This document shows, piece by piece, positions 6,192-29,107 of a stretch of 64,000 bases of DNA; the stretch's first letter is position 1; the number at the start of each line of letters is the position of its first letter. The position numbers and the translations under genes were made by a program. The stretch is from a virus. Taxonomy: Duplodnaviria > Heunggongvirae > Uroviricota > Caudoviricetes. The stretch lies in IMG/VR virus record IMGVR_UViG_3300044295_000306; one strand, 5' to 3'. The notes beneath the pieces are model-generated. The model was not told the origin of the DNA and did not search any database. It saw only the letters and a program-made list of their open reading frames with translations.

Positions 6192-7550
6192 TTATGTAAA
6201 AAATGCATCTAATGTACTTATCTTCTCTGTCTTCCAACCGATACATTCTAATATTATTCTTAAAGGCTCAACAAAAGACTTCTCAAACTGTGTATCATAA
6301 TCTATTACATTACTTAAGTCAAATTCTTTCGGTATTCTATTAACAAAAGAAATCACATCAGACTTAAATACATTAGGTTCTTTCAAATATATAAACTTGA
6401 TCTTTTCACCTTCAACAATCAATTCATATCTTTTTTCTAACTTCTTTTCCTTAATGAAATGATTGTATATCAATGAACCTCTAACATGAATGGGAGTACC
6501 TTTAGAATATATCTTTTTACTATCAGCATATTGTCCTAATCCATTCATACCTCGAGGAAATGCTATATCTTCAGGAGATAATTGCTTAAACTCGTTCCGA
6601 AAATCTTCTATAAATCTATGAAGATCGCCCTCACTTTTATTAATAATTATCTTTAGTGCGGTCTTGATCTTTTCTCGACATGCACTGGGAGTTGATGATT
6701 TCACAGCCTCTAGTCCCTGAATCTTTATAGATGGCTCTTTATAAGCTACACCTTCTGAATTATAAACATTCAAAATATATCTTTTCTTTGCAGTCCAAAT
6801 AGCCTTATCTGCTAATACTTCTCTTTTCATCTTCATCTTCTGATCATATGCATGAACATAATCAGCTAGATTTTGATAACTTTTATCAATAAATGGCTGT
6901 AATTTATCTTCACAAACACGATCCATAAAATCAATAATCTTGTTTGCCTCAGGCATCTTGTTGAATACACTCTTTACGATAGGACCAAGATGAAGATAGA
7001 TTGAATCTGTGTCTGAAGCAATCACATAATCTTTCTTATCAGTTTTCAATATATTATTCATGAATCGATTAATATCATTCTCAATCCAACGAATAGATAA
7101 CTGACCAGAAAGAGTAATGGCTAAAGCAAGTCTGATATCATAAAATCTAAAATATTGTGAGCCTAAAGCACCATAAGCTGAGTTAAGACTTACTTTCTTA
7201 GCCAATTGAAGATTTTTATATCTAGATATTCTATCGTTGATATCTCTTTTATTTTTTTCATCAGTTGCCGTCTGATACTCTTTCTGTGCTTCAATCATCT
7301 TTTTCTTATAAACAGTCCGATCATCATACATCTTCTCTAGAATTTGAGGTAAAAAACCTTTAAAGTTCCTATGAAAAAATTCACCATTTGGTGTTAAAGT
7401 TAAATTATATTTTTCTAAAATTTCTAAATTTACTTTTTTCTGTAGCATTACATCGACATTAACTTTACCGGATAATTCTAGTAAGTTATTAAGTTCAAAA
7501 ATTTCATTTTCAATATCTTCATTTGACATACTACTAATTTGTCTGAACAT
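6192..7550 (-). CDS. 43: DNA polymerase gp43, C-terminal fragment (43B)
   Basis: PolB motif B KVSLNSAYG, motif C ASDTDS, KKRY, GLEAVKSSTP; start moved to ATG 7550 behind SD AGGA. Confidence 0.95.
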   Translation of the reverse strand: MFRQISSMSNEDIENEIFELNNLLELSGKVNVDVMLQKKVNLEILEKYNLTLTPNGEFFHRNFKGFLPQILEKMYDDRTVYKKKMIEAQKEYQTATDEKNKRDINDRISRYKNLQLAKKVSLNSAYGALGSQYFRFYDIRLALAITLSGQLSIRWIENDINRFMNNILKTDKKDYVIASDTDSIYLHLGPIVKSVFNKMPEANKIIDFMDRVCEDKLQPFIDKSYQNLADYVHAYDQKMKMKREVLADKAIWTAKKRYILNVYNSEGVAYKEPSIKIQGLEAVKSSTPSACREKIKTALKIIINKSEGDLHRFIEDFRNEFKQLSPEDIAFPRGMNGLGQYADSKKIYSKGTPIHVRGSLIYNHFIKEKKLEKRYELIVEGEKIKFIYLKEPNVFKSDVISFVNRIPKEFDLSNVIDYDTQFEKSFVEPLRIILECIGWKTEKISTLDAFFT

Positions 7551-8220
7551 TTTTATTCCTAAAATAACAATCACGAGAACAATATATTCTTTTCTTTACA
7601 GAGTTTGGCGTTATTATCAAATTATTACATACGACACAGAAAAATTTATTTTTCTCAGGGTATGCTAATTTTTTTGGCTTCTTAATACCAAAATACTCCA
7701 GTCTTTTTTTCACCAGGGATTCACTTATAGAATATTTTTTCGCAATCTCTTTCCTTTTCATATTTTTTTCTATAAAATCATTATATAATTCATCATAACT
7801 AGGATCATACAATCTCTTATTTTTCCAAAAATTTTTATGATTTTCATATCTCAAATTATTCCATGGTTTAGGTATTCCCTTCAAAGAACCCCCTTTTGTA
7901 TCTGAGATATTAAACAATTTTCCTTTTTCTTCAGAAAATCTTCTTCCATATTCTTTTATTAATCTAGTTTCTATATCATATGCTTCACTTTCAGATAAAT
8001 TCTCATACATTCTCTTAATAATCGGCGGCTTATTTTTATTCATCAATGAACGTATTTTATAATATAGAAAAGGATTTACAGTTTCTTTAGGATTTTTCCA
8101 TAAAGACGGCTTTAAATGTGAACTATCTCTGTATCCTGAACCTTTTCCGACATAGAAAATTTCTTTAGTATCTTGATCAATTAATGCATATACATAAAAA
8201 ACATTTAATTCTGTATCCAT
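7534..8220 (-). mobile_element. Free-standing GIY-YIG (LEM-3-like) homing endonuclease with HTH and Cys4 zinc finger
   Basis: FYVYAL...FYVGKG...R..H N-terminus, E and N catalytic positions, KEIAKKYSISESLVKKRL HTH, CVVC...CSRDC; lies between the gp43 halves. Confidence 0.85.
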
Positions 8221-8251
8221 AGATGTGTCTCCTTAGACACATCTATTTATA
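8219..8251 (-). promoter_or_regulatory. RBS-sequestering hairpin plus overlapping late promoter for the endonuclease
   Basis: Minus strand TATAAATAGATGTGTCT-AAGG-AGACACATCTATG: perfect 12-bp stem 8219-8246 covering SD AAGGAG and the AT of ATG; TATAAATA at 8244-8251. Confidence 0.85.
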
Positions 8252-9541
8252 AAACTTTCTTTTTTCCAGCTCTTTTTTCAATTGTTCTATGCGCTCCGAA
8301 ATCATGTCTTTAGAAACCAATGTCTCAGGTGAAATATTATACTGTTGCTGGAGATTTGGATAGAGTGAATTTAAATCGAAACTAGCGACATAATCAAACA
8401 TACCAATCTGTGGATCTTTTACATAAGCACCTTCATAAGCACTATCTTTTTGTGATTGTTTCTTCGGCGATATGATTATATTCTTCATTCGTAAGAAATT
8501 ATATGTAATAGTATCCCACATCCTAACTTGCATGAAAACATCATCATAATTATGTTTGTTATCATAAGCAAGTGTCAATGCCATTTCTATCAATCTGAGT
8601 TTCTTTTCGAGATTTTCCACAATCTCAGAATCTCGAATATTATACTCAATATATTTCTGAAAGTTCTGAACATATAACTGATGCAAATTATCATACTCAT
8701 CATATGTCATCTTTCTACCAACACCTTCACTCTCAGCTATAACATCCAATCTATAGGATTCTTGTTGATTACCACCAGATTGATACTTCCTATATAACTG
8801 CATATAATCAATCGTACAAATACCGACAAAATCATATGAAATCATATCTTTATTGTACAAGAATTCTTTCTTTTCATTGACTATGTTCCATGGCGATAAT
8901 CTTTTAGTTTCTTTATCACCCAAAAGTCTGAGAATTCGATTATGAAGATATGGAATATCAAAGCCTTTGATGTTCCAACCAGTAAGAATGTTTGGATAAT
9001 TCTGTGACCAATAATCAAGAAACTTCCGAATTAAATCGATTTCATCTTTACACCGAGTATAAATAACATCTTCTCTATGTTTTCTATAATCACCATAAGC
9101 AAATACATGGAACATAGAATCCATGGTAGATTTTATCGTTATAGCAGTAATAGGTTCTTTAGCTTCTTCTGGTTTGGGAAATCCATTCTCTGAACTTACT
9201 TCAATATCAAGATAAGCTATAGAAATATCACGAATATTCCATTGAATATCTTCATTCAAGTGCTCATCCGAAATAAATGCACAGTCATATCGTGTATTAC
9301 CATAAATAGAAAAACCCTCAACATCTTCATATTGGGAGACAAAATCTCTAGCTTCACGAATACTAGAAAACTTCATTTCATCAAGATATATACCATCAAG
9401 AGATTTGTATTTTGTCTCTTTCTTGGAGGGCAAATATAAAGTAGGCATGTAAGCTATTTTCAGCTTGACATGCCTACCATTTTCTACACCGCGATAATAT
9501 ATGAAGTTTCCTATACAATTTACATTTGTATAATATCTCAT
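8243..9541 (-). CDS. 43: DNA polymerase gp43, N-terminal fragment (43A: exonuclease plus motif A)
   Basis: ExoI LDIEV, ExoII GWNIKGFDIPY, ExoIII YNIRD, motif A SFDLNSLYP, NISPETL, then TAG. Confidence 0.95.
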   Translation of the reverse strand: MRYYTNVNCIGNFIYYRGVENGRHVKLKIAYMPTLYLPSKKETKYKSLDGIYLDEMKFSSIREARDFVSQYEDVEGFSIYGNTRYDCAFISDEHLNEDIQWNIRDISIAYLDIEVSSENGFPKPEEAKEPITAITIKSTMDSMFHVFAYGDYRKHREDVIYTRCKDEIDLIRKFLDYWSQNYPNILTGWNIKGFDIPYLHNRILRLLGDKETKRLSPWNIVNEKKEFLYNKDMISYDFVGICTIDYMQLYRKYQSGGNQQESYRLDVIAESEGVGRKMTYDEYDNLHQLYVQNFQKYIEYNIRDSEIVENLEKKLRLIEMALTLAYDNKHNYDDVFMQVRMWDTITYNFLRMKNIIISPKKQSQKDSAYEGAYVKDPQIGMFDYVASFDLNSLYPNLQQQYNISPETLVSKDMISERIEQLKKELEKRKFYK

Positions 9542-9867
9542 CGTTTAATTGGAGTCACATTGTTTGATTGTGCAATTTGAATACCAGAACCAAATCTACT
9601 ATTATATTCATTAATCAATTGAAGCAAAGGTGTTGTAATTGTTAATACATCATTTGGTGAAATTGGAATACCCGTTTTAAATTCTTCAGAAAACTCAAGA
9701 AAAGGAATCAATGCAATTCCAGCTTCGCCTGTCGATGATCTAGGTGGCATCATAACAACCTGAACGGGTTCTTTCATGACGATTGCACCTGGCATTTCAG
9801 GATCATCAACAATACAAGTCAAAAATGTTTTATCGTTTTTTAATGTTACAAGCTTAATATCAGACAT
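9538..9867 (-). CDS. Hypothetical, Sm-like small protein upstream of gp43
   Basis: IKLVTLKN..., SD GAGG; conserved position in T4-like phages. Confidence 0.6.
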   Translation of the reverse strand: MSDIKLVTLKNDKTFLTCIVDDPEMPGAIVMKEPVQVVMMPPRSSTGEAGIALIPFLEFSEEFKTGIPISPNDVLTITTPLLQLINEYNSRFGSGIQIAQSNNVTPIKR

Positions 9868-10081
9868 TAATTTCCTCACTTTCATGATATACAGCAAGAG
9901 TCAGCCAGCGTTTGGGAAACAACATTTCCCTACCCTCAAAATCTTTGATATCTAGTGTCGGATCAGGAACATATCCAATAAGTTCCACATCTCCATCACC
10001 CCTCAAATGAAAATCATAATCATGCGCTCTGATCAGATTATCGCGCTTAACAAGCTTCTCAGCAATTTCTTGTACAGTCAT
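9860..10081 (-). CDS. Hypothetical protein
   Basis: Tightly packed ORF; start chosen at GGAG-n5-ATG. Confidence 0.6.
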   Translation of the reverse strand: MTVQEIAEKLVKRDNLIRAHDYDFHLRGDGDVELIGYVPDPTLDIKDFEGREMLFPKRWLTLAVYHESEEINV

Positions 10082-10091
10082 TTCTACTCCA

Positions 10092-10442
10092 TTAAACATA
10101 ATTTTTAAGATTAGGTGGTTGCCATCCATCTGGCTTCATCACTTTACCATTAGCATTCTTGATTACTTTACCTGTATTTGGATCGATCTTGTTCAGATTA
10201 GTAGCGGCAACTTCATTCCATGCACCTTGAACATTGAAATTATTCATCGCACAATAACCTAAAATTACCCAAATCATGTCCATACAAGCATCAAGCTGTT
10301 CTATTCTATCATTATTTTCAATTGCTGTCAAGAACTCTTTGTATTCTTCCGTAATTAATGAAGCATATAGTTTAGAATTTTCCTGGGTAGGAACTTGATC
10401 ACATGCATGTATAAACTTTAAAACATCATAAAACATCTGCAT
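10092..10442 (-). CDS. MazG-like/PRA-PH nucleotide pyrophosphohydrolase
   Basis: LITEEYKE...LDACMD acidic helices, GKVIKNANGKVMKPDGW tail. Confidence 0.8.
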   Translation of the reverse strand: MQMFYDVLKFIHACDQVPTQENSKLYASLITEEYKEFLTAIENNDRIEQLDACMDMIWVILGYCAMNNFNVQGAWNEVAATNLNKIDPNTGKVIKNANGKVMKPDGWQPPNLKNYV

Positions 10443-10872
10443 TTTTAACTCTCCTTCTAAGCGATGATGTACTATAATTGTGTTTTCGTGTGTTGTAATA
10501 AATCTCTATTCCTCTTTCTTCACAAATATCTTTACCTGTGAAGTCTTTATCTTGATATTCTTCACCAAGAATACGAATATTAATAGGAAGTATTCTCAAA
10601 AGATTACATAATTCTTCTTCTGTATCATAAACAATATAATGATCAACAAATTTATTAGCTGAAACGGTAATCTGTCTTTCGAGAATGGATTGAATGGGTT
10701 TGTTTTTTTCATTAGGACGATTGATTGTCGGATCTGTTTGAATACCAACTATCAGATAATCACATACCGATTTAGCTTCTGCGAGCATTAATACATGACC
10801 TGCATGAAGTAAATCAAAAGTTGAACAGGTAAATCCTATTTTATCTTGTGTTTTCTTATAATTTAGAATCAT
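10426..10872 (-). CDS. tagD: TagD-like cytidylyltransferase
   Basis: STFDLLHAGH (HxGH), R-x-H-x-Y-STS C-terminal motif. Confidence 0.85.
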   Translation of the reverse strand: MILNYKKTQDKIGFTCSTFDLLHAGHVLMLAEAKSVCDYLIVGIQTDPTINRPNEKNKPIQSILERQITVSANKFVDHYIVYDTEEELCNLLRILPINIRILGEEYQDKDFTGKDICEERGIEIYYNTRKHNYSTSSLRRRVKNADVL

Positions 10873-11341
10873 ACTTTATTACCTTAACATAAGACTTAGA
10901 TAAAAAATCTAAACCATCATTTGATCTATATTCTTTATCAAAATAAACTTTTTCTATTTGTGCTTGATAGATGATCTTTGCACATTCAATGCATGGAGCG
11001 TGAGTGATGAATAACGTGGATCCAACAGACGACATGGTGGATCTTGCGATTTTCGCAATTGCGTTGCTTTCTGCATGGAGGACTTCTGGCCTAGTAACCA
11101 ACCGATATCTCTGATCTTCTTCAACATAAGGATATTCCTTTTCTTCATCTTGTTCAATAGCAGCATATACCTTGTATTCACACACATTACTCCATTTACT
11201 AGGCATTCCATTATATCCAATACCTATGATTGTATCATCCTTGACAATAACACAACCTACCTTTAATCTAACAGCAGTAGAAAGTTCTGAGAAATTCCAT
11301 GCCGTTTTCATATAAGCATGAACTAATTTATTCTTCATCAT
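10856..11341 (-). CDS. cd: dCMP deaminase
   Basis: GYNG, HAE, PCIEC zinc motifs. Confidence 0.92.
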   Translation of the reverse strand: MMKNKLVHAYMKTAWNFSELSTAVRLKVGCVIVKDDTIIGIGYNGMPSKWSNVCEYKVYAAIEQDEEKEYPYVEEDQRYRLVTRPEVLHAESNAIAKIARSTMSSVGSTLFITHAPCIECAKIIYQAQIEKVYFDKEYRSNDGLDFLSKSYVKVIKYDSKL

Positions 11342-17023: not shown

Positions 17024-17704
17024 TTACTTCTTAGTAAAAGTCGAACCCGGCTCTAAAGCAATCCAATACTTTAAATGCATATCTTTATTACTGAAATGGG
17101 ACAAACCTTTTGAAAACAATGATACATCATAGTTTCCAGATAACATCTTGAAAAGATGCGTCTTAAAGATAAACTTGTAAGTATCACCATTTCCATTACC
17201 AATCACTAAACTATTAATCTTAGCTGCATCATCTTTAACATCGGTACCAACAATACTGATATTAGTACCATCACTTTCAATAATGATATTGGGTGCAGCA
17301 ATAACACTAGCAGTTTTCATGATCCAATCAAAATCATCTTTGTTCAAAACAAATGATGCTTCTGCTCCAGAACTATCAAGTTCTTTCTCTGGCGCAACAG
17401 TAATAAGTTCTGGTGAACAAGTACGATATACAACTTTATTTCTACCACCATAACCTTTGATAATAAGATTATTATCTTCAATGGTAATATCAGGTGTCTC
17501 TTTATGAAGAGATAGTAAGGCAAGTAATTGATTCAATTCATAGATACCAAAATTGCCTGTAAATTCTTCAGCAATCTTAGCTTCTGCGAGAATGCATCTG
17601 TCATTATCAACAGTCCGTAATACACTACCTTTACGGAAATACAAACTTGTATTAATGTTGACAAAGTTCTTTAAAATTTCAATAGTCTTATCAGAAAGTT
17701 TCAT
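17024..17704 (-). CDS. 45: Sliding clamp gp45
   Basis: MKLSDKTIEILKNF, FGIYELNQLL, YWIALE; synteny. Confidence 0.92.
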   Translation of the reverse strand: MKLSDKTIEILKNFVNINTSLYFRKGSVLRTVDNDRCILAEAKIAEEFTGNFGIYELNQLLALLSLHKETPDITIEDNNLIIKGYGGRNKVVYRTCSPELITVAPEKELDSSGAEASFVLNKDDFDWIMKTASVIAAPNIIIESDGTNISIVGTDVKDDAAKINSLVIGNGNGDTYKFIFKTHLFKMLSGNYDVSLFSKGLSHFSNKDMHLKYWIALEPGSTFTKK

Positions 17705-17721
17705 AATATCTCCAAAATAAC

Positions 17722-17751
17722 ATAATATCACATAACAACTATTTCTTGCAA
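17722..17751 (-). promoter_or_regulatory. Possible sigma70 promoter TTGCAA-18-TGa-TATTAT for gene 45
   Basis: Extended -10; imperfect boxes. Confidence 0.35.
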
Positions 17752-18333
17752 CATATCGTCCACTTTTTGTTCAAGTTGATGAATGTTTCCGTCATTATTA
17801 ATCGTATAATCAAAATGACATCCTATCCAGTCAGTTTCAGATATATGAATATCATACTTCGGCTTTTCACCACCTTCTGTATTATATCTCAAATAATCTT
17901 CATACCAGATAGGTTCTGGTCCTCTTTTAATCCGAATAACTATACCATTATTCTTTTGGATATAGTTCATTTCGTTTTTAAATCTAACATCCGATACTAC
18001 AACATTCTTTCCTTTTGCACGATTAAGTAAAGAAAGAACCCATATATCAAGATGAAAGACATTCCTTCCGGCTTCAGTACCCATTAATTGTAATGCAAGT
18101 CTTGGTGTAAACGGCTTTCCAAAACTTTGACTCCAAAACGGATCGGGTTGTTCACGCCACTGCCGCGATACTTCTGTATCACCCTCTAAAAGATCCCTTG
18201 GCCATCCAAACATAATAGCAATAGCATCTTTTAGAGGTGCAGCAAAACTATCTTTATGAAATCCTCGGGTTGTAAGAATATCTCCGACTGTTCCCTTACC
18301 AGAGCCTATAAATCCAACTAACCCCAATATCAT
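17728..18333 (-). CDS. 1: Deoxynucleoside monophosphate kinase (gp1-like)
   Basis: GFIGSGKG P-loop, FAAPLKD, PRLALQLMGTEAGR, SDVRF, HISE. Confidence 0.9.
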   Translation of the reverse strand: MILGLVGFIGSGKGTVGDILTTRGFHKDSFAAPLKDAIAIMFGWPRDLLEGDTEVSRQWREQPDPFWSQSFGKPFTPRLALQLMGTEAGRNVFHLDIWVLSLLNRAKGKNVVVSDVRFKNEMNYIQKNNGIVIRIKRGPEPIWYEDYLRYNTEGGEKPKYDIHISETDWIGCHFDYTINNDGNIHQLEQKVDDMLQEIVVM

Positions 18334-19541: not shown

Positions 19542-20657
19542 TTATGCTGTTGGTTGATTATTATTTCCCTTATCAGTATCAACATTCGAATCAATTTTAC
19601 TGTAAAGATCAATAAAAGATTTTTTAGTATCATCATCAAACCGATTAAGACAGTATTCCATTGCATTTTTAATGTTCTTGAAAATACTGTAGGTACGGGC
19701 AATATGTACTAATCGGCGAGTAGAAATTACTTCATCACAACCACCAGCATCAAAAGTTTTCCGAATACCGTTAGCCCATGTCACAAGATTATCAATAAGT
19801 TTGTCATCTGAAATACCAAGAGATTCAAATTCTTTTGTGAGAATCTTCTTTTCAACGACTTCAGTAGGCCAAACTTGCTCAAATGTAATAGGAAACCGCT
19901 CCAGAAAAGCTTCATTCAGAATATTGGTAAACATATATCGACCATCATCTGAACCTTTACCTTTTGTATTAGCAGTCGCAATAATAGTAAATCCTTCAGC
20001 AGGAACAATAAGTTCATTCTTTTTCTTCAAAAGAAATGGCTTACCTTCCAAAACACGCTGCAAAGTAGAAAGATTCTGTCCACCATAGTCGATTTCATCA
20101 ACACAGAGAACAGCACCTTCACGCGCAGCAACAGTTACAGGACCGTCGCGCCAAACCATTTGTCCATCAAGCAAAACATAATTACCAAGTAAATCCGATT
20201 CATCTGTTTCATGTGTCATCGACACACAAATAAATTTCCGTTTCAACTTAGCACATGCTTGCTCAACAGATAAAGTTTTGCCATTACCCGAATGTCCTGT
20301 AATAAAAACAGGAATAAATTGTCTTGAACTAATGATAGCAACTAGATCACCGAAATTACCAAATGGTACATAATTCTTATAAACACTCGGAACAATATCC
20401 TGTTTCTGGATATCTGTCTCAATATTATTAATTTTCTTCAAAGGAATCACACTCGCTGCCATTTGTGGACTATTAGTCGCTTGTTCAATACGAAATAAAC
20501 CTCTTCTAATTCGATTAGATGAATCATTCAAAAACCACTGCGGCACAGTCAGATTGTTACTCTTACACAATTCAACAATCTCACCGCGAGTAATACTCGA
20601 CTTACCAGTAGCAGCAAGAATATTCATAAACTTTTCACGAATCTCAGAACGCTTCAT
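19542..20657 (-). CDS. cobS: MoxR/CobS-like AAA+ ATPase
   Basis: GHSGNGKT, LCVDEID, TANTKGKGSDDGRY, EAFLERF, ISTRRLVHI. Confidence 0.88.
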   Translation of the reverse strand: MKRSEIREKFMNILAATGKSSITRGEIVELCKSNNLTVPQWFLNDSSNRIRRGLFRIEQATNSPQMAASVIPLKKINNIETDIQKQDIVPSVYKNYVPFGNFGDLVAIISSRQFIPVFITGHSGNGKTLSVEQACAKLKRKFICVSMTHETDESDLLGNYVLLDGQMVWRDGPVTVAAREGAVLCVDEIDYGGQNLSTLQRVLEGKPFLLKKKNELIVPAEGFTIIATANTKGKGSDDGRYMFTNILNEAFLERFPITFEQVWPTEVVEKKILTKEFESLGISDDKLIDNLVTWANGIRKTFDAGGCDEVISTRRLVHIARTYSIFKNIKNAMEYCLNRFDDDTKKSFIDLYSKIDSNVDTDKGNNNQPTA

Positions 20658-20686
20658 TATATAGACCTTTCATCAAAATTTCAATC

Positions 20687-20715
20687 ATTATATCACAAAA
20701 CACTATTATTGTCAA
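20687..20715 (-). promoter_or_regulatory. sigma70 early promoter TTGACA-17-TATAAT
   Basis: Perfect consensus. Confidence 0.85.
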
Positions 20716-22766
20716 TCAATGATTTGTTGAATAAATTTGTTAATAAAAATCCGATTTATAGCTCTCTTATTGTTAAATTTGGTCAATACAGTAGCTAATT
20801 GTTTCGACGTTATTTTATAAACATTTTCAAAATAATCATCCAAATAATCATCCAAATCCTCTTCATTAAAAATAGTTTTATCAGTATGTGTTACAAAAAA
20901 TCTATTATAACCGTAAATATATGATTCAAGATACTTATCTTCTGTCAATTTCTTGGAAATAAGACTAGTATCACCATTTTTATTATTAAATTTATTTCCT
21001 TTTTTATCGTAATAATAATTCATGATAAACTTACTAATAGCATGTTTTCCCTTACCCACAAGAAAATAACCAATCACATTACAATTATATTTTCGCTTGA
21101 TAATGTTAATCATACAGGATGTTAGAGATTTTGTCTCTGACATAGTTTCTTCAATATTTGTCTCTTTATCATATACAACAATCCTATCTTTAATACCCTG
21201 ATGATCAAAAGCAGTAAATCTATAATCTTTAGAATCTTTGGGATTATAAAAAGCATTAGTTGTATCTGAATCACCATCTTGTACAATTAAAAGATTAACA
21301 ATTTGAACATTATTTTTCTTCTTAAAATCTTTGATAATAGGATCTATAGCGCACAAAGCTTCATGAAGAGGTGTACTAGACATAGATTCTGATACTGGAA
21401 CATTTTGATCTGTTGTGTATAATTTTTCGAGAATCATTAATCCAGTAATAGCTTTATTATATTTCTCATTGGAAAGATTAGAATTAACAATCTCTCTTAA
21501 ACGAAAATTATCAAATTTTAAATCATTTTGATCATCAGAAAATTGTGGTCCCAATTCTTCAAAATCAGAATCTTCCGGTGTTTGGGAAACATTATTATGA
21601 AATCCATTATGAAATCCATATACCACAAAAGGAATATTTACTCTTTTACAAAAATGAATCATAATCAATATTTGTTCAATACATGCTGCAATATAATTAG
21701 ACATTGATGCTGATCTATCCAGCAACATAATCATACCATGTGATTTACCATCAGCAACAAGCATTGCTTTTTTGAAAATATCATCTTCAATTTGATAACG
21801 ACAAATCTTGTTTATATTCAAATCGCCGGTTTCTGATATTTTTGTTCTAGCATATTTTTTTGCCGCTTTTCGCATTTCAAATTCTTTGACCAATAAAGAA
21901 ATATATCGATCATTCCGTCCGTGAAATTCATTCTTAACAAAAGCTGGATCATATCTAGTCACATCATAGCCTAAACCTTTTAAAAGAGATATATGATTAA
22001 AAATATGTTTATATACTGTTTCGGGTTTATTAATGATACTTTTTAGATTTGGCTTGGGAATACTCAACCTGTAATAATTTTTGCAATTTTTATCAAGAAG
22101 AATTTCTTCATTCTTTCTAAAGTTTTCATCAGTCATACAAGAAGGAATTCTATCTTCTGTTTCAACGATAATATCTTCTCCTTCTCCTTCAATTTCAGGA
22201 AACTGTTCATCTTTCGAATATTCAAAGATAATATCTGTAACTTTTAAAACATCATTCCATGTCTGAGTGTTTTCAACCATATCCAGCATTTCCTTTTCTT
22301 TTTCAGAAAAATGCGGATTAATGATACCACAAGATTTCATGTAAAGATTAATCTTGTCAATAAAGAAAAGGGTTTCAATATCTTTATCTTTAATACCAAA
22401 AAAATCTTGTTCAAAAAGATTCTTATATCCTTCAACAAAAGATTTTTTAATTCCAGGATAGCGTTGTTTGATCATTCTTTCGATTCGAGCATCCTCAATA
22501 ACATTCAAGAAATGCTTATATTTCGGACCTTTTTCTGTTACAACATCATGCCATCCTTCAGGAGGAGTGTTTAAAGCATGGCTTACTTCATGTCCAAGAA
22601 TCAAATCATACAAATATCCATCCATATTTTTCCAAATAGGACAAACAAGAATTCGTTTTTGAAGATCAAAATAAGCAATCTTGGTATTAGCGCGAAATTC
22701 GATATTAATGTTTTCAGTCGCTAGAAGTTTAGCTAATTGTGATTTGGAACTTTCAGAATATTCCAT
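20712..22766 (-). CDS. Metallopeptidase-vWA (CobT-like) partner of the MoxR ATPase
   Basis: GHEVSH (HExxH), EDARIE, MIMLLDRSASM MIDAS, STPLHEAL, QDGDS. Confidence 0.82.
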   Translation of the reverse strand: MEYSESSKSQLAKLLATENINIEFRANTKIAYFDLQKRILVCPIWKNMDGYLYDLILGHEVSHALNTPPEGWHDVVTEKGPKYKHFLNVIEDARIERMIKQRYPGIKKSFVEGYKNLFEQDFFGIKDKDIETLFFIDKINLYMKSCGIINPHFSEKEKEMLDMVENTQTWNDVLKVTDIIFEYSKDEQFPEIEGEGEDIIVETEDRIPSCMTDENFRKNEEILLDKNCKNYYRLSIPKPNLKSIINKPETVYKHIFNHISLLKGLGYDVTRYDPAFVKNEFHGRNDRYISLLVKEFEMRKAAKKYARTKISETGDLNINKICRYQIEDDIFKKAMLVADGKSHGMIMLLDRSASMSNYIAACIEQILIMIHFCKRVNIPFVVYGFHNGFHNNVSQTPEDSDFEELGPQFSDDQNDLKFDNFRLREIVNSNLSNEKYNKAITGLMILEKLYTTDQNVPVSESMSSTPLHEALCAIDPIIKDFKKKNNVQIVNLLIVQDGDSDTTNAFYNPKDSKDYRFTAFDHQGIKDRIVVYDKETNIEETMSETKSLTSCMINIIKRKYNCNVIGYFLVGKGKHAISKFIMNYYYDKKGNKFNNKNGDTSLISKKLTEDKYLESYIYGYNRFFVTHTDKTIFNEEDLDDYLDDYFENVYKITSKQLATVLTKFNNKRAINRIFINKFIQQIID

Positions 22767-22793: not shown

Positions 22794-22822
22794 ATTATAT
22801 TATATTCAAGTATATTTGTCAA
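22794..22822 (-). promoter_or_regulatory. sigma70 early promoter TTGACA-17-TATAAT
   Basis: Perfect consensus. Confidence 0.85.
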
Positions 22823-22829
22823 TCTTTTT

Positions 22830-23741
22830 TTATGGAATAATTCCATTAAAATTATTGACCAATTTCATTCCGTAATTGTCTATAGTTTCTGGTACAATAA
22901 TGTCTTTTTTATAGATAAGTTGGTTATTCTTAAATGGACTATAATCAACATAATGATGCCAACGTCCATATTTCCAAACAACCTTAGCAACATCCGGATG
23001 CATATCTACAAGCATTTGAGATTTATTGATTGTTCCAGTTGCATTCAATTGGCCGTCTCTCCATTTAGACTTATCAAGATCGCCTTCAGCATGATAAAAT
23101 TCTGCGGTATTGCCACCCTTAACAGTCTGTGTTGCCGCTTTACCTTGAAGGAATATATTAAATTGAATGGTACAATCACCATCTTTTAAAACACGCAGAC
23201 ATATATCGGTATCTTCATTATATCTTCCACGCCAACGATGCTTACATTCATTGTCTATTAATAGACACGAATATATTCTCGTATTCTTTACATATGGAGG
23301 ATACTTCTGATTTGGTGCGATAAAGAATCTATATTGGAATCCAGAAATAGGAACATTATCGAATCTATCAATAAAATCTTCTGCTACCTTGAAGATAACA
23401 CCCGACTCCACTCTTATTCTTTTGTTTTGGTGAAGTCTATAGAAATCGGAGATATTATCATCAAGAACCCAATGTTTTTTGGCACCAATATGAATTGCAT
23501 GATCCCAAGCATAATTTCTTGCTCTTCCTGGACCATCACCATGATTGCTGAAAGGAGCAACAATCAATGATACATATGGACGAATCTTGAACTCATCCAA
23601 AGCTTTTTCATAAGGTTCTTTGTCTTGGGGTTCAATAATGATATAATGAGGTACTTTCATTCTTGATAAAGAACGGGAAGTAATCATTGTGTCGGCACGA
23701 CCTTTAGATACAATATAAACTGGATGAACTGGATTTGTCAT
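22830..23741 (-). CDS. TET-associated glycosyltransferase (TAGT/GREB1-like) family protein
   Basis: PVYIVSKGR start, WVLDDNI, RIYSCLLI, WRGRYNEDTD, KGGNT. Confidence 0.7.
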   Translation of the reverse strand: MTNPVHPVYIVSKGRADTMITSRSLSRMKVPHYIIIEPQDKEPYEKALDEFKIRPYVSLIVAPFSNHGDGPGRARNYAWDHAIHIGAKKHWVLDDNISDFYRLHQNKRIRVESGVIFKVAEDFIDRFDNVPISGFQYRFFIAPNQKYPPYVKNTRIYSCLLIDNECKHRWRGRYNEDTDICLRVLKDGDCTIQFNIFLQGKAATQTVKGGNTAEFYHAEGDLDKSKWRDGQLNATGTINKSQMLVDMHPDVAKVVWKYGRWHHYVDYSPFKNNQLIYKKDIIVPETIDNYGMKLVNNFNGIIP

Positions 23742-23744
23742 GAT

Positions 23745-24416
23745 TTAATTTGAGCAATAAATTGTGCTTACCCAAGCACCTTTAGGTTCTTTTCTATATT
23801 CTACATTAGAAAAATACTTTTCTAAGATACCTATAATCTCATGAAAAATAACTTCTTTTCCTATGTCATTTAAATGAGCATGATGAAATTCCATAATAAA
23901 CTCCCTAACTTTACTTAAATCATAAGTAAGATTTGTAAGACATTCATATTCACCACCTTCAATGTCCATTTTAATAACATTAGGTTTAACTTTCTCTAAT
24001 ACATCATTTATGTTGATGCATTCAACAGTTACAGTTTCTCTTCCTTTTTTATGTACTAAAGAGTGAGCACCTTTATTCTTTTTTACATTAACAGAAAAAT
24101 TTCTGGTTTTTTCATTATTACCTATCACAGCCAAGTTGTATAATTTAACATTATTGAAGTCATTCAATTTAATGTTTTCTTTAGCTAATTCATAATTTTC
24201 TTTTTCTGCCTCATATGCATATACTTCTTTAGCTCCTTTTTTTGATGCCCAACAGGTAAACATTCCTATATTTAAACCAAAATCAACTACAACATCATCA
24301 GGCTTAATCTTTAATTTATTATAAGCACCATCCATTACTTCATGAACAACAAACTCATCGGATGTTCCATCCCGAACAAATGCCTTGATTCCTTTATATG
24401 ATATATCTTTATTCAT
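23745..24416 (-). CDS. FkbM-family SAM methyltransferase
   Basis: VVDFGLNIGMF, AYEA...N, IKMDIEGGE. Confidence 0.88.
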   Translation of the reverse strand: MNKDISYKGIKAFVRDGTSDEFVVHEVMDGAYNKLKIKPDDVVVDFGLNIGMFTCWASKKGAKEVYAYEAEKENYELAKENIKLNDFNNVKLYNLAVIGNNEKTRNFSVNVKKNKGAHSLVHKKGRETVTVECININDVLEKVKPNVIKMDIEGGEYECLTNLTYDLSKVREFIMEFHHAHLNDIGKEVIFHEIIGILEKYFSNVEYRKEPKGAWVSTIYCSN

Positions 24417-24769
24417 TCTTCAATCCATCTCAATAAAGCATTCTCTTCTCTGTTCAAATGAGGGAACCACATACTCTTAGTTCTCTGTGTAATAGTCTGA
24501 TCTTTATCTATATGCTCTTTATAATTCTTACAGAATGCTTCAAAATCTTCTTTGTTCCTGAAGTGTAGATAAATCGTCTTGTAAGTCTTGTTATCTTCCT
24601 GTTCATATTCAGGCATACCTTTCCAATGCTTACGCCACTCTTCATCTGTGTCTTGTTCCTGAATTATTTCTTCTTCAATATTCAATACATCAAAGATATT
24701 ATTCTTTTTTTCAGGCTCAGCCTTTTTAGCGATAAAATTATCATAAATACCACTCTCTTTTATCGTCAT
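24413..24769 (-). CDS. Hypothetical, putative partner of the TAGT-like enzyme
   Basis: HWKGMPEYEQ...FRNKEDF...TKSMWFP; translationally coupled to the methyltransferase. Confidence 0.6.
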   Translation of the reverse strand: MTIKESGIYDNFIAKKAEPEKKNNIFDVLNIEEEIIQEQDTDEEWRKHWKGMPEYEQEDNKTYKTIYLHFRNKEDFEAFCKNYKEHIDKDQTITQRTKSMWFPHLNREENALLRWIEE

Positions 24770-25332
24770 TATCTTCTTCCTTGTCTTGTTACTTTCTTTA
24801 TAAGCTTAGACTGTTTTCTTCTAGCAGTCATCAATGAAACATTACCCACATATTCGGTAAATTTTATTCCATTCATATGATCTAATTCATGTTGGAATAT
24901 TCGTGCGGTTATTCCTTCAAATACATGCTGAACAGTCCTACCAGATGCATTCTCATATTCTACACTAATTTCGTTATCTCTGTCAACGCTTAAAAATAAT
25001 CCAGGAAAAGATAAACAACCTTCCTTATCTTTAATTTTTCTGGTACTTTCCTTAATAATTCTTGGATTAAAACAAACGAAATCAGGCGTCATAACAAATA
25101 CCCTAAACGGTAATCCACATTGATTTGCTGATAATCCTAAACCATCATACAATTTCATTGTTACTTTTAATCTACCAGCTAATTCTACTGGATCCATTTT
25201 TGGTTCATCAAAATTAAATAATGGCATTTTCATCGACAATAATGGATTAGTCTCATCAAACACAGGTAAAGGTTCATAATTCCTTACCGCAACTCTTGGA
25301 TCAGTATTAATAGTTAAAATTTCATCATTCAT
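24769..25332 (-). CDS. def: Peptide deformylase
   Basis: GLGLSANQ, EGCLS, QHELDH. Confidence 0.95.
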   Translation of the reverse strand: MNDEILTINTDPRVAVRNYEPLPVFDETNPLLSMKMPLFNFDEPKMDPVELAGRLKVTMKLYDGLGLSANQCGLPFRVFVMTPDFVCFNPRIIKESTRKIKDKEGCLSFPGLFLSVDRDNEISVEYENASGRTVQHVFEGITARIFQHELDHMNGIKFTEYVGNVSLMTARRKQSKLIKKVTRQGRR

Positions 25333-27044
25333 GATATTGTCATCCTAGAAAAATTCTGTATCTTTTCAAATCTAATTACATTAGAAAACTTGTCTTGTAA
25401 TACATCACCCTTATGAGATATTACAAATAAATTAACATCTTCCAGCATATGAAGTATCTTCATCAATTCCTCGGTACCAGAATTATCTAAAGATGAATCA
25501 AACACCTCATCTAAAATCAAAAGATTCGTATTTGATGAATTCTTCATCTTCGCAATAGCTCGCCAAGTCAACATAAGACTCATATCGATTCTTTGCTTCT
25601 CACCCTCAGAAAATGATTCATAACTGAATTCATCCCTATGTCTCGACTTAATAGATTCTTTAAACGATTCATCAAGATTAAAATTAACAAAAAAGTCCAT
25701 CGCAACCAGATGTTTATTTACCAGCTTGTTTATAATTGGTAAATATTGTTTAATTATCTTTGTCTTAATACCCGAATCTTTCAGTAACAATGCTGCAACA
25801 TCCTGATATACTTTTTTATCTATATAATCTTTCAACAAATCCTCAAGTTTCTTCAATTCTGTTTTCAAGACAATTAAATCTTCTTCTTCTTTGGAAGTAG
25901 ATTTCTTTGTTGTTAATATGACAGAAATCTTATCATTCAATTTCTTATTGAATTTGTTTATCTCTGCTATAGAGGTGTTATATCCAGTAACTTGTGTCTG
26001 AAGAACACTTATACTATTAGCAATGTCGTTTATTTCTTTAACTCGAATATTCAATCCAGTTATTCTAGATTCTATTTCCGTTAAAGCTGTTTCACACTCT
26101 TTTATTTTATCGCTATTGGAATCTATTTGTTCTTGTTTAAAATGTGATGCAATACTTTGTTTGCAAGTCGGACAAGTATCATTGGATTTAAAGAAAGACA
26201 AAGTTTTCTTGTGCTTTGAGAGATTATTCTCAATATTATTTTCCAATTGAGTAAATTTATTGACTCTTTCTCCGACTTTGTCCTTATCGGATATTTCTTC
26301 AAGTAATTTCTCAATATTTTGTGTTGTCTGCTTGATAGAGGCATTTAACTTTTCTATCTCAATAGAATTATTTGATATCTCTTTTTCATACGATTGAATA
26401 AGATCATTATCATTCTTATTAATAGACTCAATAAATTTTTCCTGCATATTTATCTTCTCTTTAGAAGAATCTATCAATAACTTAGTTTGATCGATAGCTT
26501 CCTTACTTTCAACAATCTTGTTTTTTAATATACTATTCATTGTTGAAAATATCTGAATATCCAATAAATCTTCAATTATTGATCTTCTATCAGCAGCCGT
26601 AAGTTGCATGAAAGGAGTAAATGATGCAGATCCTAATATAACTATTTGCGTAAAAGATTTGAAGTTTAGCTTGAGAATAACCTTCTCTAAAAACTCTTGA
26701 TAATCTCTCGCGGCAGCATTCTGATTCAACAACACATCATCTTGATATATCTCAAAAACATTGGGCTTTATACCACGAATTATCTTATAATGTTTGTTAT
26801 TTGTTTTAAACTCGACTTCAACTAAACAATCTCTTTGATTAATACTATTCAATAACTGTGGCTTGTTTATCTTTCTGAATGGTTTACCAAATAGACCAAA
26901 ACACAATGCATCTAACATTGTGCTTTTACCAGCACCATTAGTACCAACAACAAGGGTATTATAATTCTTGTTTAATTCTATTTCTATGAAATAATTACCG
27001 GTACTCAAAAAATTACGCCATCTAAGCTTTTCAAAGTCTATCAT
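25329..27044 (-). CDS. 46: Recombination nuclease SMC-like subunit gp46
   Basis: GTNGAGKS, CPTC zinc hook, FSEGE signature, LDEVFD, SH. Confidence 0.96.
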   Translation of the reverse strand: MIDFEKLRWRNFLSTGNYFIEIELNKNYNTLVVGTNGAGKSTMLDALCFGLFGKPFRKINKPQLLNSINQRDCLVEVEFKTNNKHYKIIRGIKPNVFEIYQDDVLLNQNAAARDYQEFLEKVILKLNFKSFTQIVILGSASFTPFMQLTAADRRSIIEDLLDIQIFSTMNSILKNKIVESKEAIDQTKLLIDSSKEKINMQEKFIESINKNDNDLIQSYEKEISNNSIEIEKLNASIKQTTQNIEKLLEEISDKDKVGERVNKFTQLENNIENNLSKHKKTLSFFKSNDTCPTCKQSIASHFKQEQIDSNSDKIKECETALTEIESRITGLNIRVKEINDIANSISVLQTQVTGYNTSIAEINKFNKKLNDKISVILTTKKSTSKEEEDLIVLKTELKKLEDLLKDYIDKKVYQDVAALLLKDSGIKTKIIKQYLPIINKLVNKHLVAMDFFVNFNLDESFKESIKSRHRDEFSYESFSEGEKQRIDMSLMLTWRAIAKMKNSSNTNLLILDEVFDSSLDNSGTEELMKILHMLEDVNLFVISHKGDVLQDKFSNVIRFEKIQNFSRMTIS

Positions 27045-28111
27045 GCATTATTTTCCGTATTCAATGCTTCAACATATAACTCTTTCATCAATGCCTTAAG
27101 CTTAACATTATTTACATTCAATGATAATGAATCTATATGATTAGATAATATTGTTATAGTATCTTCTGTCTTACCTATTTCCTCTTCTTCCTCTTCACCA
27201 ACAACATCAACTAAATCCTCAACAATATTAATATTTGATGTGCCAGCTTTGTAAAAGGAATCAATAACAGTATCAAATAAAAATGGATTCTGTTTATTAA
27301 CTACTATAATCTTTACCATACTATCTTTAAATGCTTCGATATTCTGATTTTGCCAATACTCATGGTTCTGGACAGTATCATCATAAGTTACCTTATGAAA
27401 CATTTTATATGGATTTGGAATGAATTCAAGTTGTCTCGTTTCAGTGTCAAAAACATGAAACCCTCTTTGATCATTATAATCATTCCATGTCATTTCATAT
27501 TGATTACCCAAATAAAAGATGGTACCATCAGTCGATCTATGATGAAAATGACCTGATAATACCATATCATATCGTTCAAATAGATTTCTTGATAAACCTT
27601 CATGGGAAACATTACCACGATCCATTTCAAATCCAGTTATATCAAAATGACCAAATACTATCTCAACAGGAGCATTATGCAACAAATCCATACTCTTGTC
27701 AAGATTATCTTCACATATCCATGGCATTAAAAGAATAGGCAATTCATCAAACTCAACCACAATAGGATCTTCATAGATATGAAGTTCATTATACATACCA
27801 CACAAATTCTTTATAGCATTAACTTTATTAGTATTCTTGAAATAGGTATCATGATTTCCAATTAGAATGTGAGTGTCAATATTATTCGATATTAGTCTTT
27901 TGATAAATCGATTCTGGAAATCATTAGCTATATTATGATTAATGAATTTTCGACGGTCAACAACATCGCCTAGATGAATTACCGTTTTAATATCATGTTT
28001 TTCAAGATATGGAAAGAATATGTTTTCCCAAAACTTGAAAAAGAATTCATTAAAGTTAAGATTATCTCCACGCGCACCAAAATGGGTGTCGTTTATGATT
28101 GCAAGCTTCAT
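27041..28111 (-). CDS. 47: Recombination nuclease subunit gp47
   Basis: DTHFG, GDVVD, GNHD, GHF, SGHFH. Confidence 0.95.
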   Translation of the reverse strand: MKLAIINDTHFGARGDNLNFNEFFFKFWENIFFPYLEKHDIKTVIHLGDVVDRRKFINHNIANDFQNRFIKRLISNNIDTHILIGNHDTYFKNTNKVNAIKNLCGMYNELHIYEDPIVVEFDELPILLMPWICEDNLDKSMDLLHNAPVEIVFGHFDITGFEMDRGNVSHEGLSRNLFERYDMVLSGHFHHRSTDGTIFYLGNQYEMTWNDYNDQRGFHVFDTETRQLEFIPNPYKMFHKVTYDDTVQNHEYWQNQNIEAFKDSMVKIIVVNKQNPFLFDTVIDSFYKAGTSNINIVEDLVDVVGEEEEEEIGKTEDTITILSNHIDSLSLNVNNVKLKALMKELYVEALNTENNA

Positions 28112-28702: not shown

Positions 28703-29107
28703 TTAATGTAATAATTTCTTATCTACTTCAGGCATAACAAACTCATCTTCTGAATCTTCTTGAAGAGATTCTGATAGTTTAGTAAGTTCATCACGAAACA
28801 TTTCATCTTTTAATAGGAAAGCATTCTGCTCTTCCAACAAAAGATTTTCATAATACTCAATAAACTCTGCCTTAGGAGTCATGATAGTTAATATATCATT
28901 TGAGTATATTTCCGTTTCATTGTTTTCTAATAATTCAATAGGCAACCAAGGCGCTAACATTAAAATCGATTTGCCATTTGGCAATCTACGAAAAACGATT
29001 CTCATAGGATCACGAACAATAGCTGAATCGTTGTTCTTTGTGCCTTCCATAGATGCTACAATATCTTCGCCAGTAATCATTCTTATTATTCTTATCTCTT
29101 TATCCAT
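28703..29107 (-). CDS. Hypothetical Sm-like protein between uvsW and 55
   Basis: IRIIRMITGEDIVA...PW; conserved synteny. Confidence 0.7.
   Translation of the reverse strand: MDKEIRIIRMITGEDIVASMEGTKNNDSAIVRDPMRIVFRRLPNGKSILMLAPWLPIELLENNETEIYSNDILTIMTPKAEFIEYYENLLLEEQNAFLLKDEMFRDELTKLSESLQEDSEDEFVMPEVDKKLLH

Follow-up and report, generated by a model that had tools for sequence, protein, structure and literature searches.

A TAGT-family glycosyltransferase with a predicted adaptor subunit and an optional methyltransferase in the replication region of T4-like aquatic phages

What does a glycosyltransferase encoded among the replication genes of a tailed phage glycosylate, and which proteins work with it? 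This question is raised by three genes in a 64-kb stretch of DNA (64,000 nucleotides, referred to here as the window, on which all positions are numbered) from the IMG/VR virus record IMGVR_UViG_3300044295_000306 (Caudoviricetes). The genes, P0001, P0002 and P0003, are open reading frames (ORFs) inside the window and lie on its minus strand. P0001 (24413-24769) encodes a 118-aa protein that we propose to be an adaptor of the glycosyltransferase, P0002 (23745-24416) a 223-aa S-adenosylmethionine (SAM) methyltransferase of the FkbM family, and P0003 (22830-23741) a 303-aa glycosyltransferase of the TAGT/JGT-like type, probably a GT-A enzyme. In the initial annotation they were regarded as a candidate trio for DNA hypermodification. 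We lean, though only slightly, towards the explanation that P0001 and P0003 constitute a two-subunit glycosyltransferase, joined in some phages by a sugar methyltransferase, that would act on phage DNA at an acceptor outside the known hydroxymethyl-pyrimidine routes.

The family assignment of the glycosyltransferase was clear. P0003 matched the TAGT profile PF20691 at 6.9e-43 (147.4 bits, cut-off 27.5), with residues 7-210 aligned to positions 2-205 of the 205-position profile, and matched phrog_842 at 1.9e-44; the label of a TAGT-like glycosyltransferase was therefore correct. Among 34 homologues, R15, D94-D95-N96 (23454-23462) and E176-D177-T178-D179 (23205-23216) were invariant or nearly so. 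For the active site of related phage enzymes, Pyle et al. (bioRxiv 10.1101/2023.12.21.572611) give the pattern R ... DDD ... EDY/F, and P0003 carries DDN and EDT in place of DDD and EDY/F. The top Foldseek matches of P0003 were all GT-A enzymes (SunS, POMGnT1, TarS, LH3 and GnT-I) but were weak (E ~4e-4, template modeling score ~0.3). The Pfam scan gave no match of P0003 to PF09198, the family of the T4 β-glucosyltransferase (b-gt, GT-B), and the TAGT profile found no match among PDB sequences.

P0001 proved to be a regular companion of this enzyme. In 80 related IMG/VR loci whose TAGT is 73-86% identical to P0003, a P0001 homologue was encoded upstream of TAGT in 78, mostly with overlapping stop and start codons. 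The partner/TAGT arrangement recurred in tens of related contigs, and this recurrence across relatives rules out a chance arrangement of the three genes. In cultured phages, the TAGT gene was about 100 residues longer at the N-terminal end, and the extension corresponded to the core domain of P0001. Such partner-TAGT fusions were found in Aeromonas phages Aeh1 (399 aa) and 65 (398 aa), Tenacibaculum phage PTm1 (471 aa), Vibrio phages 1.076.O and 1.124.O, Paraglaciecola phage GD1 and Pectobacterium phage POP12, as well as in metagenomic proteins and locus L077. The ackermannvirus Vibrio phage Kuja carries two tandem copies (453 and 446 aa; L102:4575-7263). The tandem genes of this cultured phage adjoin a DNA-end-protector gene and a single-stranded DNA-binding protein (SSB) gene.

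The core partner domain comprises residues 48-118 of P0001 (24416-24628, minus strand) and follows the pattern W-x-x-H-W-x-G-M-P-E-[FY] ... F-R ... T-K-S-x-W-x-P ... R-W. It was conserved whether the protein stood alone or was fused to TAGT, to ParB_N or to TAGT-PolA. P0001 itself had no Pfam family above the cut-off, weak matches to MetW and UPF3 falling below it and being left unused, and it had zero matches among PDB sequences. A profile built from 34 homologues and run against 1.84 billion proteins retrieved 2920 cluster representatives at E≤1e-3; judging from sequence, P0001 belongs to a large family without a Pfam description. The partner gene is also hit by mobile elements: P0064 is a tandem partner protein with a LAGLIDADG-containing, intein-like insert, and P0093 is an HNH endonuclease fused to a partner domain.

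The predicted complex supports binding between the two proteins. P0001 by itself gave a poor AlphaFold2 (AF2) model (predicted local distance difference test score, pLDDT, 65.6), which fits a subunit that folds on its partner. With TAGT, the ipSAE score was 0.84 as opposed to 0.13 for the best control, passing a mark that 58 of 80 solved complexes attained, as did 2 of 110 mismatched pairs. Contacts agreed between runs to at least 76%, and the partner pLDDT was at least 71. In the model, P0001 residues 2-16, 41-61 and 110-118 touch TAGT, leaving 17-40 and 62-109 free, and the regions contacted on TAGT include residues 63-84, its most conserved loop. No similar complex was found among solved structures when the P0001 and TAGT profiles were compared with PDB sequences. 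The two proteins also differ in charge: P0001 is acidic (isoelectric point, pI, 5.1) and P0003 is basic (pI 9.0), a contrast seen across the families, in which the median pI of TAGT is 8.9 and the adaptor is acidic. Fusions, conserved adjacency and the complex model together support the earlier proposal that P0001 is a genuine TAGT partner.

P0002 was identified as an FkbM methyltransferase, in agreement with its earlier label, by PF05050 (Methyltransf_21/FkbM; 2.1e-20, 74 bits, cut-off 22.7) and by NCBIfam TIGR01444 (fkbM_fam; 9e-27, 94 bits, cut-off 37.7). Its position between partner and TAGT is a variable slot, which was empty in most loci. Apart from the window, the slot held FkbM in 9 of the 80 close loci (~11%). 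Elsewhere it held a dedicated class-I SAM methyltransferase (six loci), a second TAGT-family glycosyltransferase (two loci), a 350-aa protein without a Pfam or NCBIfam family (nine loci: L009, L013-L021; for example L013:7281-8345 and L009:8949-10004), an HNH homing endonuclease (one locus, L019) or a 252-aa protein (one locus). The 350-aa protein fell near a look-alike cluster of the protein atlas in which 40% of the members carry T4-Gluco-transf; kinship with T4 b-gt was unconfirmed, since hhalign against T4 beta-GT gave a probability of 0.2 with a two-sequence profile. Homologues of the same protein at 34% identity occur in the ~190-kb Vibrio phages pv27, Va1 and phiKT1024, the pv27 and Va1 copies being annotated as hypothetical.

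FkbM is thus not a constant part of the module, as only ~11% of the close loci have it. Seen from the FkbM side, the association was without exception: all 15 loci of FkbM relatives in IMG/VR carried both partner and TAGT, and so did L110. The order was partner-FkbM-TAGT in T4-like phages and partner-TAGT-X-FkbM in a cyanophage-like contig; in the complete 35.8-kb siphovirus G010, a ParB_N-partner fusion was followed by TAGT, a class-I methyltransferase and FkbM, and in L110 the FkbM gene preceded and overlapped a 1319-aa partner-TAGT-DNA polymerase A gene. That the linkage recurs in differing gene orders and in unrelated phages suggests that FkbM and TAGT are functionally coupled. The class-I methyltransferase of G010 is homologous to those found in the T4-like phages (3e-36). 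Two methyltransferase families and a second glycosyltransferase in the slot are as expected for tailoring of a transferred sugar. Characterized members of the FkbM family O-methylate sugars or other hydroxyls; by analogy with these, and given the constant linkage to a glycosyltransferase, sugar O-methylation is the most likely activity of P0002.

DNA is suggested as the target by the company that the partner domain keeps. In 17 of 53 longer relatives the partner core domain was fused to ParB_N, and these genes sat immediately upstream of a standalone TAGT, overlapping its start, either beside terminase and portal genes or within replication genes (L107, L108 and L122 are examples). The Pfam scan detected no ParB_N domain in P0001 of the window. 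ParB-like proteins activate phage DNA thymine dioxygenases on double-stranded DNA (PMC13229309), and phage GT-A enzymes of the JGT-like type glycosylate 5-hydroxymethylcytosine (5hmC) in DNA (bioRxiv 10.1101/2023.12.21.572611). In L110 (3506-7465), partner domain, TAGT and DNA_pol_A are joined in one ORF of 1319 aa, and from its domain content this protein may be a natural replisome-fused DNA glycosyltransferase. Genes for MT-A70, beta-clamp, UDG-like and Pyr_excise proteins lie in the same neighborhood. In isolates, the fused partner-TAGT gene was located among polymerase, helicase, clamp-loader, Dam and dUTPase genes, and the module of the window lies within the early replication block, flanked by sigma-70-type promoters. 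The fusions to ParB_N and DNA polymerase A would tie the enzyme to DNA machinery, from which we infer DNA as the target of TAGT.

A further candidate link to DNA was found in the linker of P0001. Residues 23-34 (NNIFDVLNIEEE; 24668-24703, minus strand) form a hydrophobic-acidic motif, a candidate for sliding-clamp binding, with the family consensus [ST]-L-x-[DE]-F-[LM]-G-[IM]-acidic. Its position is conserved inside an otherwise variable linker and outside the predicted TAGT interface, and L25 is present in at least 90% of the members. The strict motif occurred in 15 of 34 partner members, compared with about 1 per 2425 aa in phage proteomes; STLDAFL, DLTDFLGIED and TLAEFLGMEE are examples from partners of the T4-like clade. 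It resembles the C-terminal tails of gp43 DNA polymerases, namely ASLDFLFG of T4, ASLESFFA of G001 and STLDAFFT of the window (6195-6218, minus strand; homologous to the T4 tail), and also the gp55-like tail of G001, KLEEFMEDDD. The function of the clamp-binding tails of T4 gp43, gp55 and gp33 has been described (PMC2988020). On account of this likeness to the gp43 and gp55 tails, we propose that the adaptor may tether TAGT to DNA via the sliding clamp, and that the linker may dock on the gp45-like clamp of the window (17024-17704, minus strand; gp45-slide_C 1.2e-11).

If DNA is glycosylated, a base carrying a suitable hydroxyl would be expected from a precursor pathway. To our knowledge, phage routes to a glycosylatable pyrimidine all pass through a ThyA homologue or through TET/JBP, the latter in some cases together with a C5-methyltransferase. 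The 5-hydroxycytosine route also belongs to the ThyA family, as Thymidylat_synt covers dCMP/dUMP hydroxymethylases and 5-hydroxy-dCMP synthases (PMC13326640). We scanned all six frames at E≤1 for Tet_JBP and the ThyA family and at E≤0.1 for the C5 DNA methylase in three complete relatives (CheckV 100%): G001 (149.6 kb, terminal repeats), the syntenic G006 (167.4 kb), in which the partner-FkbM-TAGT trio of the window recurs, and G010 (35.8 kb, terminal repeats). Tet_JBP, Thymidylat_synt and C5 DNA methylase were all absent from these three genomes and from seven partial contigs, and none was present among the scanned ORFs of the 64-kb window. The search of the genome for a hydroxymethylase, TET or dUMP-modifying enzyme, which had been suggested earlier, thus found none in the complete relatives, and the hydroxymethyl-pyrimidine acceptor assumed for the trio is unsupported. 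The broader idea of a methylated sugar on DNA remains plausible, and that of three genes forming one functional module is supported; it is the assumed acceptor that lacks support.

Other enzymes did not fill this gap. G001 and G006 encode ThyX and dCMP deaminase, and G010 has neither ThyX nor ThyA; ThyX is therefore not a general precursor enzyme and was rejected as a hidden hydroxymethylase. A 2OG-FeII_Oxy_3 oxygenase, which G001 and G003 encode far from the module and which G002, G004 and G005 lack, was rejected as a consistent partner. Cultured phages with the fused enzyme had no TET/JBP; a ThyA-family gene was present in four of five, scoring as an ordinary thymidylate synthase (up to 1e-93). 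The acceptor could be a product of new DNA chemistry, a base made by an unrecognized enzyme, or a protein, as with GREB1.

Several genes for nucleotide metabolism lie in the surroundings. An RfaE-domain-II-like sugar-phosphate nucleotidyltransferase gene (10426-10872, minus strand; TIGR02199 2.4e-25, below the cut-off), which might supply a nucleoside diphosphate-sugar donor, overlaps the end of the dCMP deaminase gene (10856-11341, minus strand). In G001, dCMP deaminase is encoded directly between def, the peptide deformylase gene, and the TAGT partner. The window further contains a gene for a gp1-like deoxynucleoside monophosphate (dNMP) kinase (17728-18333, minus strand; DNMK 3.1e-9) that has no homologue in the complete G001. 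In T4, the gp1 dNMP kinase serves the modified-nucleotide pathway.

Taken together, the observations favor, by a small margin, a module of the following kind. TAGT would be the catalytic GT-A subunit, kin to the base-J glucosyltransferase and to the phage GT-A enzymes that glycosylate 5hmC in DNA. P0001 would act as a docking adaptor that clasps TAGT with the N-terminal motif, the W-x-x-H-W-x-G-M-P-E-F segment and the C-terminus, the remainder being free for a third partner. Fusion to TAGT, fusion to a ParB_N of the CTPase type, the TAGT-PolA fusion and the clamp-like linker may represent alternative holds on replicating or packaging DNA, such that ParB_N, itself a DNA clamp, or the polymerase fusion would replace the sliding-clamp tether in other phages. 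FkbM in the slot would most likely O-methylate the transferred sugar, and relatives with a class-I methyltransferase, a second TAGT or both methyltransferases would then produce strain-specific glycan variants, as an arms race with host nucleases would lead one to expect. The module would be transcribed with the early replication genes, and the acceptor would most likely be phage DNA rather than the hydroxymethyl-pyrimidine of any known route. A bolder version, which we hold only tentatively and regard as doubtful, is that widespread aquatic phages, both T4-like myoviruses and small siphoviruses, decorate their DNA with an O-methylated sugar without any hydroxymethyl- or hydroxy-pyrimidine precursor, the glycosyltransferase being carried along DNA by an adaptor that plugs into a sliding clamp, a ParB-type clamp or a polymerase. 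In that case the sugar would be placed directly on a canonical base or the backbone, or on a base from an unrecognized enzyme.

A number of observations weigh against DNA modification by such a clamped enzyme. The AF2 model of P0003 was poor (pLDDT 64.5), only the N-terminal 100 residues being confident. Canonical DNA lacks a hydroxyl for glycosylation, and the precursor enzymes described above were missing. The TAGT-PolA fusion is known from a single metagenomic contig. As for the clamp-like motif, it is internal in P0001, whereas the T4-type motif sits at the extreme C-terminus; the copy in the window is degenerate and matches the consensus more loosely; and one partner subclade (the LPIDV forms) lacks it. 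Pyle et al. consider glycosyltransferase contigs that lack 5mYOX/ThyS to be less obviously DNA-modifying. Protein glycosylation is one alternative: the adaptor would recruit a replisome, virion or host protein, TAGT would O-glycosylate it as GREB1 does with estrogen receptor alpha (ER-alpha), and the methyltransferases would tailor the glycan. GREB1, a proven protein O-GlcNAc transferase of the family (PMC7968844), is the only animal relative studied biochemically, and a protein acceptor would require no enzyme making a glycosylatable base, in keeping with G001, G006, G010 and the seven partial contigs. The fused gene of Vibrio phage 1.076.O lies between portal and head-morphogenesis genes, which would suit a virion-protein target; in L107 and L108 the gene precedes terminase, and virions of mycobacteriophages are glycosylated, as cited in PMC12619734. 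We nevertheless consider protein glycosylation unlikely: DNA is indicated by the ParB_N and DNA polymerase A fusions and, in most phages, by the location within replication modules, the flanking promoters are of the early rather than the late type, and no candidate acceptor protein co-varies with the module.

The other alternatives keep parts of the trio and change its substrate. In the classical pathway, 5hmC, 5-hydroxymethyluracil (5hmU) or 5-hydroxycytosine would come from a hydroxymethylase or TET encoded outside the window, and FkbM would methylate the sugar. The TAGT family was defined through its association with TET/JBP, and its GT-A relatives act on 5hmC (bioRxiv 10.1101/2023.12.21.572611). 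The window shows only 64 kb of the phage genome and includes the dNMP kinase that G001 lacks, most cultured phages with the fused form have a ThyA-family gene, and Kuja belongs to Ackermannviridae, a family known for 5hmU-derived bases. Against this, the complete and syntenic G006, with the same trio, has no ThyA-family or Tet_JBP match at E≤1, the same being true of G001 and G010; G001 and G006 rely on ThyX; no precursor gene was among the scanned window ORFs; and the ThyA matches of the isolates score like ordinary thymidylate synthases. We therefore judge the classical pathway to be rather improbable. Still less probable is that FkbM is unrelated mobile or accessory cargo in a permissive gap, acting on another substrate such as a surface or virion glycan. 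The slot does take an HNH homing endonuclease and genes without a family, and ~89% of the close loci lack FkbM; however, FkbM relatives adjoin TAGT at every locus found, in varied orders and in unrelated phages, and what occupies the slot in its place, a methyltransferase or another TAGT, is again of a sugar-tailoring type. Modification of host cell-surface glycans, for seroconversion or superinfection exclusion, is hardly credible. Although phage glycosyltransferase clusters often modify host surface glycans (PMC7824862), the module has no membrane segments or lipid-carrier enzymes; its soluble, basic enzyme, probably of the GT-A type, has fusions to DNA machinery and is encoded by a lytic T4-like phage within the early replication block, and in other phages the module is found in packaging and replication modules. 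FkbM enzymes, for their part, commonly methylate surface sugars.

The two-subunit enzyme acting on DNA, the explanation that we favor, can be compared with known systems. The closest are the 5mYOX/ThyS-associated GT-A enzymes of phages described by Pyle, Lund, O'Toole and Saleh (bioRxiv 10.1101/2023.12.21.572611; Cell Rep 2024), which correspond to the TAGT family of Iyer et al. 2013 (Pfam PF20691). P0003 is of the same family, probably of the same GT-A type, and shares the R ... DD[D/N] ... ED motifs with these enzymes and with the trypanosome base-J glucosyltransferase JGT. Like the enzymes of that study, it is phage-encoded, occurs in a DNA-metabolism context and is in some relatives accompanied by a second glycosyltransferase, as in their disaccharide pathways. 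It differs in the DDN and EDT variants and in that the three complete relatives analyzed here have no gene for TET/JBP, the ThyA family or a C5-methyltransferase. In a term search of the paper we found no mention of an adaptor subunit, which looks obligatory here, or of dedicated FkbM or class-I methyltransferases. The thymine dioxygenase system 5mYOX176/ParB176 (PMC13229309) is similar in that a DNA-base-modifying enzyme needs a small cognate partner and in that relatives of our module have a ParB_N-partner fusion whose gene immediately precedes that of the enzyme; it differs in that the enzyme here is a glycosyltransferase rather than a dioxygenase and the partner in the window has no ParB_N.

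The α- and β-glucosyltransferases of T4 are likewise early genes in a replication/recombination block, T4 b-gt adjoining genes 42 and 43, and are presumed functional analogues for the decoration of DNA with sugar against restriction. In contrast to the enzyme described here, which is probably of the GT-A type, has an adaptor and is accompanied by no gp42 homologue, they are GT-B enzymes that act alone and need hydroxymethylcytosine made by gp42. The clamp-tethered T4 proteins gp43, gp55 and gp33 share with P0001 a short L-x-[DE]-F-[LM] motif with acidic residues on a flexible linker, theirs being C-terminal and that of P0001 internal. GREB1 (PMC7968844) has a homologous glycosyltransferase domain that works without a hydroxymethyl-base pathway, but at 1949 aa it is a multidomain protein of the cytoplasm, its substrate is a protein, and it has neither such an adaptor nor a methyltransferase. 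Within the literature searched, we found no description of the module architecture.

Glycosylation of their DNA is one of the main ways in which phages evade restriction and CRISPR, and it also provides enzymes for epigenetic sequencing. About two thirds of the ~25,000 phage glycosyltransferase contigs of Pyle et al. lack a 5mYOX/ThyS neighbor and were left unexplained in that study. The clade analyzed here falls among these ~65% orphan contigs because it has no 5mYOX/ThyS gene, an absence that is genome-wide here. The module makes this orphan class concrete: adaptor and enzyme are a conserved pair, the fusions to ParB_N and DNA polymerase A argue for action on DNA, and in the complete relatives the known precursors are ruled out. 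The dedicated methyltransferases predict methylated DNA glycans, of which none has been reported within the literature searched. With DNA as the acceptor, the module would represent a novel nucleic-acid chemistry and would introduce the principle of clamp-tethered base modification; with a protein as the acceptor, it would be the equivalent of GREB1 in phages. The chance that new chemistry underlies the system, for which two to four small genes suffice, is substantial.

The surroundings of the module define its limits. The window has a low GC content (~32%), carries nearly all of its genes on the minus strand and is syntenic with T4-like aquatic myoviruses. A gp47-like gene (27041-28111) and a gp46/SbcC-like gene (25329-27044) precede the def gene (24769-25332, minus strand; PF01327 3.9e-31), which lies directly upstream of P0001. 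The stop codon of def and the start of P0001 overlap by one base (TAATG, as read from the sequence), the P0001 stop and P0002 start overlap in ATGA, and a 3-nt spacer separates the P0002 stop from the P0003 start; three coupled genes directly after gp46-def, as described in the initial annotation, were thereby confirmed with exact coordinates. A candidate early promoter, TTGACA-18-TAGAAT (24957-24986, minus strand), lies upstream of P0001 in the 3′ part of def and matches the consensus at 11 of 12 positions, the consensus match being its only basis. In the intergenic gap after the TAGT stop, a sigma-70-type promoter, TTGACA-17-TATAAT (22794-22822, minus strand), matches at all 12. Because this perfect promoter opens the next unit, a CobT-like/CbbQ-like pair, the trio ends at the TAGT stop.

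The CobT-like (20712-22766) and CbbQ-like (19542-20657) genes were accordingly rejected as members of the module. They have their own perfect promoters: the one at 22794-22822 serves the CobT-like gene, and a second 12/12 TTGACA-17-TATAAT (20687-20715, minus strand) lies in the intergenic gap before the CbbQ-like gene. Cyanophages without TAGT, moreover, retain a "peptidase" gene at the matching position. The window (19542-22766) and G010 (L126:11278-13661) each encode a MoxR/CbbQ-type AAA_5 ATPase with a VWA/metallopeptidase-like protein, the latter being phrog_459 in the window and DUF2201 in G010. In both, the pair lies within a few kb of the TAGT module (counted across the terminal repeat in G010), which may be coincidence. 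Elsewhere in the window, gp43 is split into two minus-strand ORFs, an N-terminal one at 8243-9541 and a C-terminal one at 6192-7550, that both match one 829-aa gene of G001, with a GIY-YIG homing-endonuclease gene (7534-8220; LEM-3_GIY-YIG 1.8e-9) between them. Two DUF6561 paralogues (9538-9885 and 28703-29107, minus strand) are located 19 kb apart.

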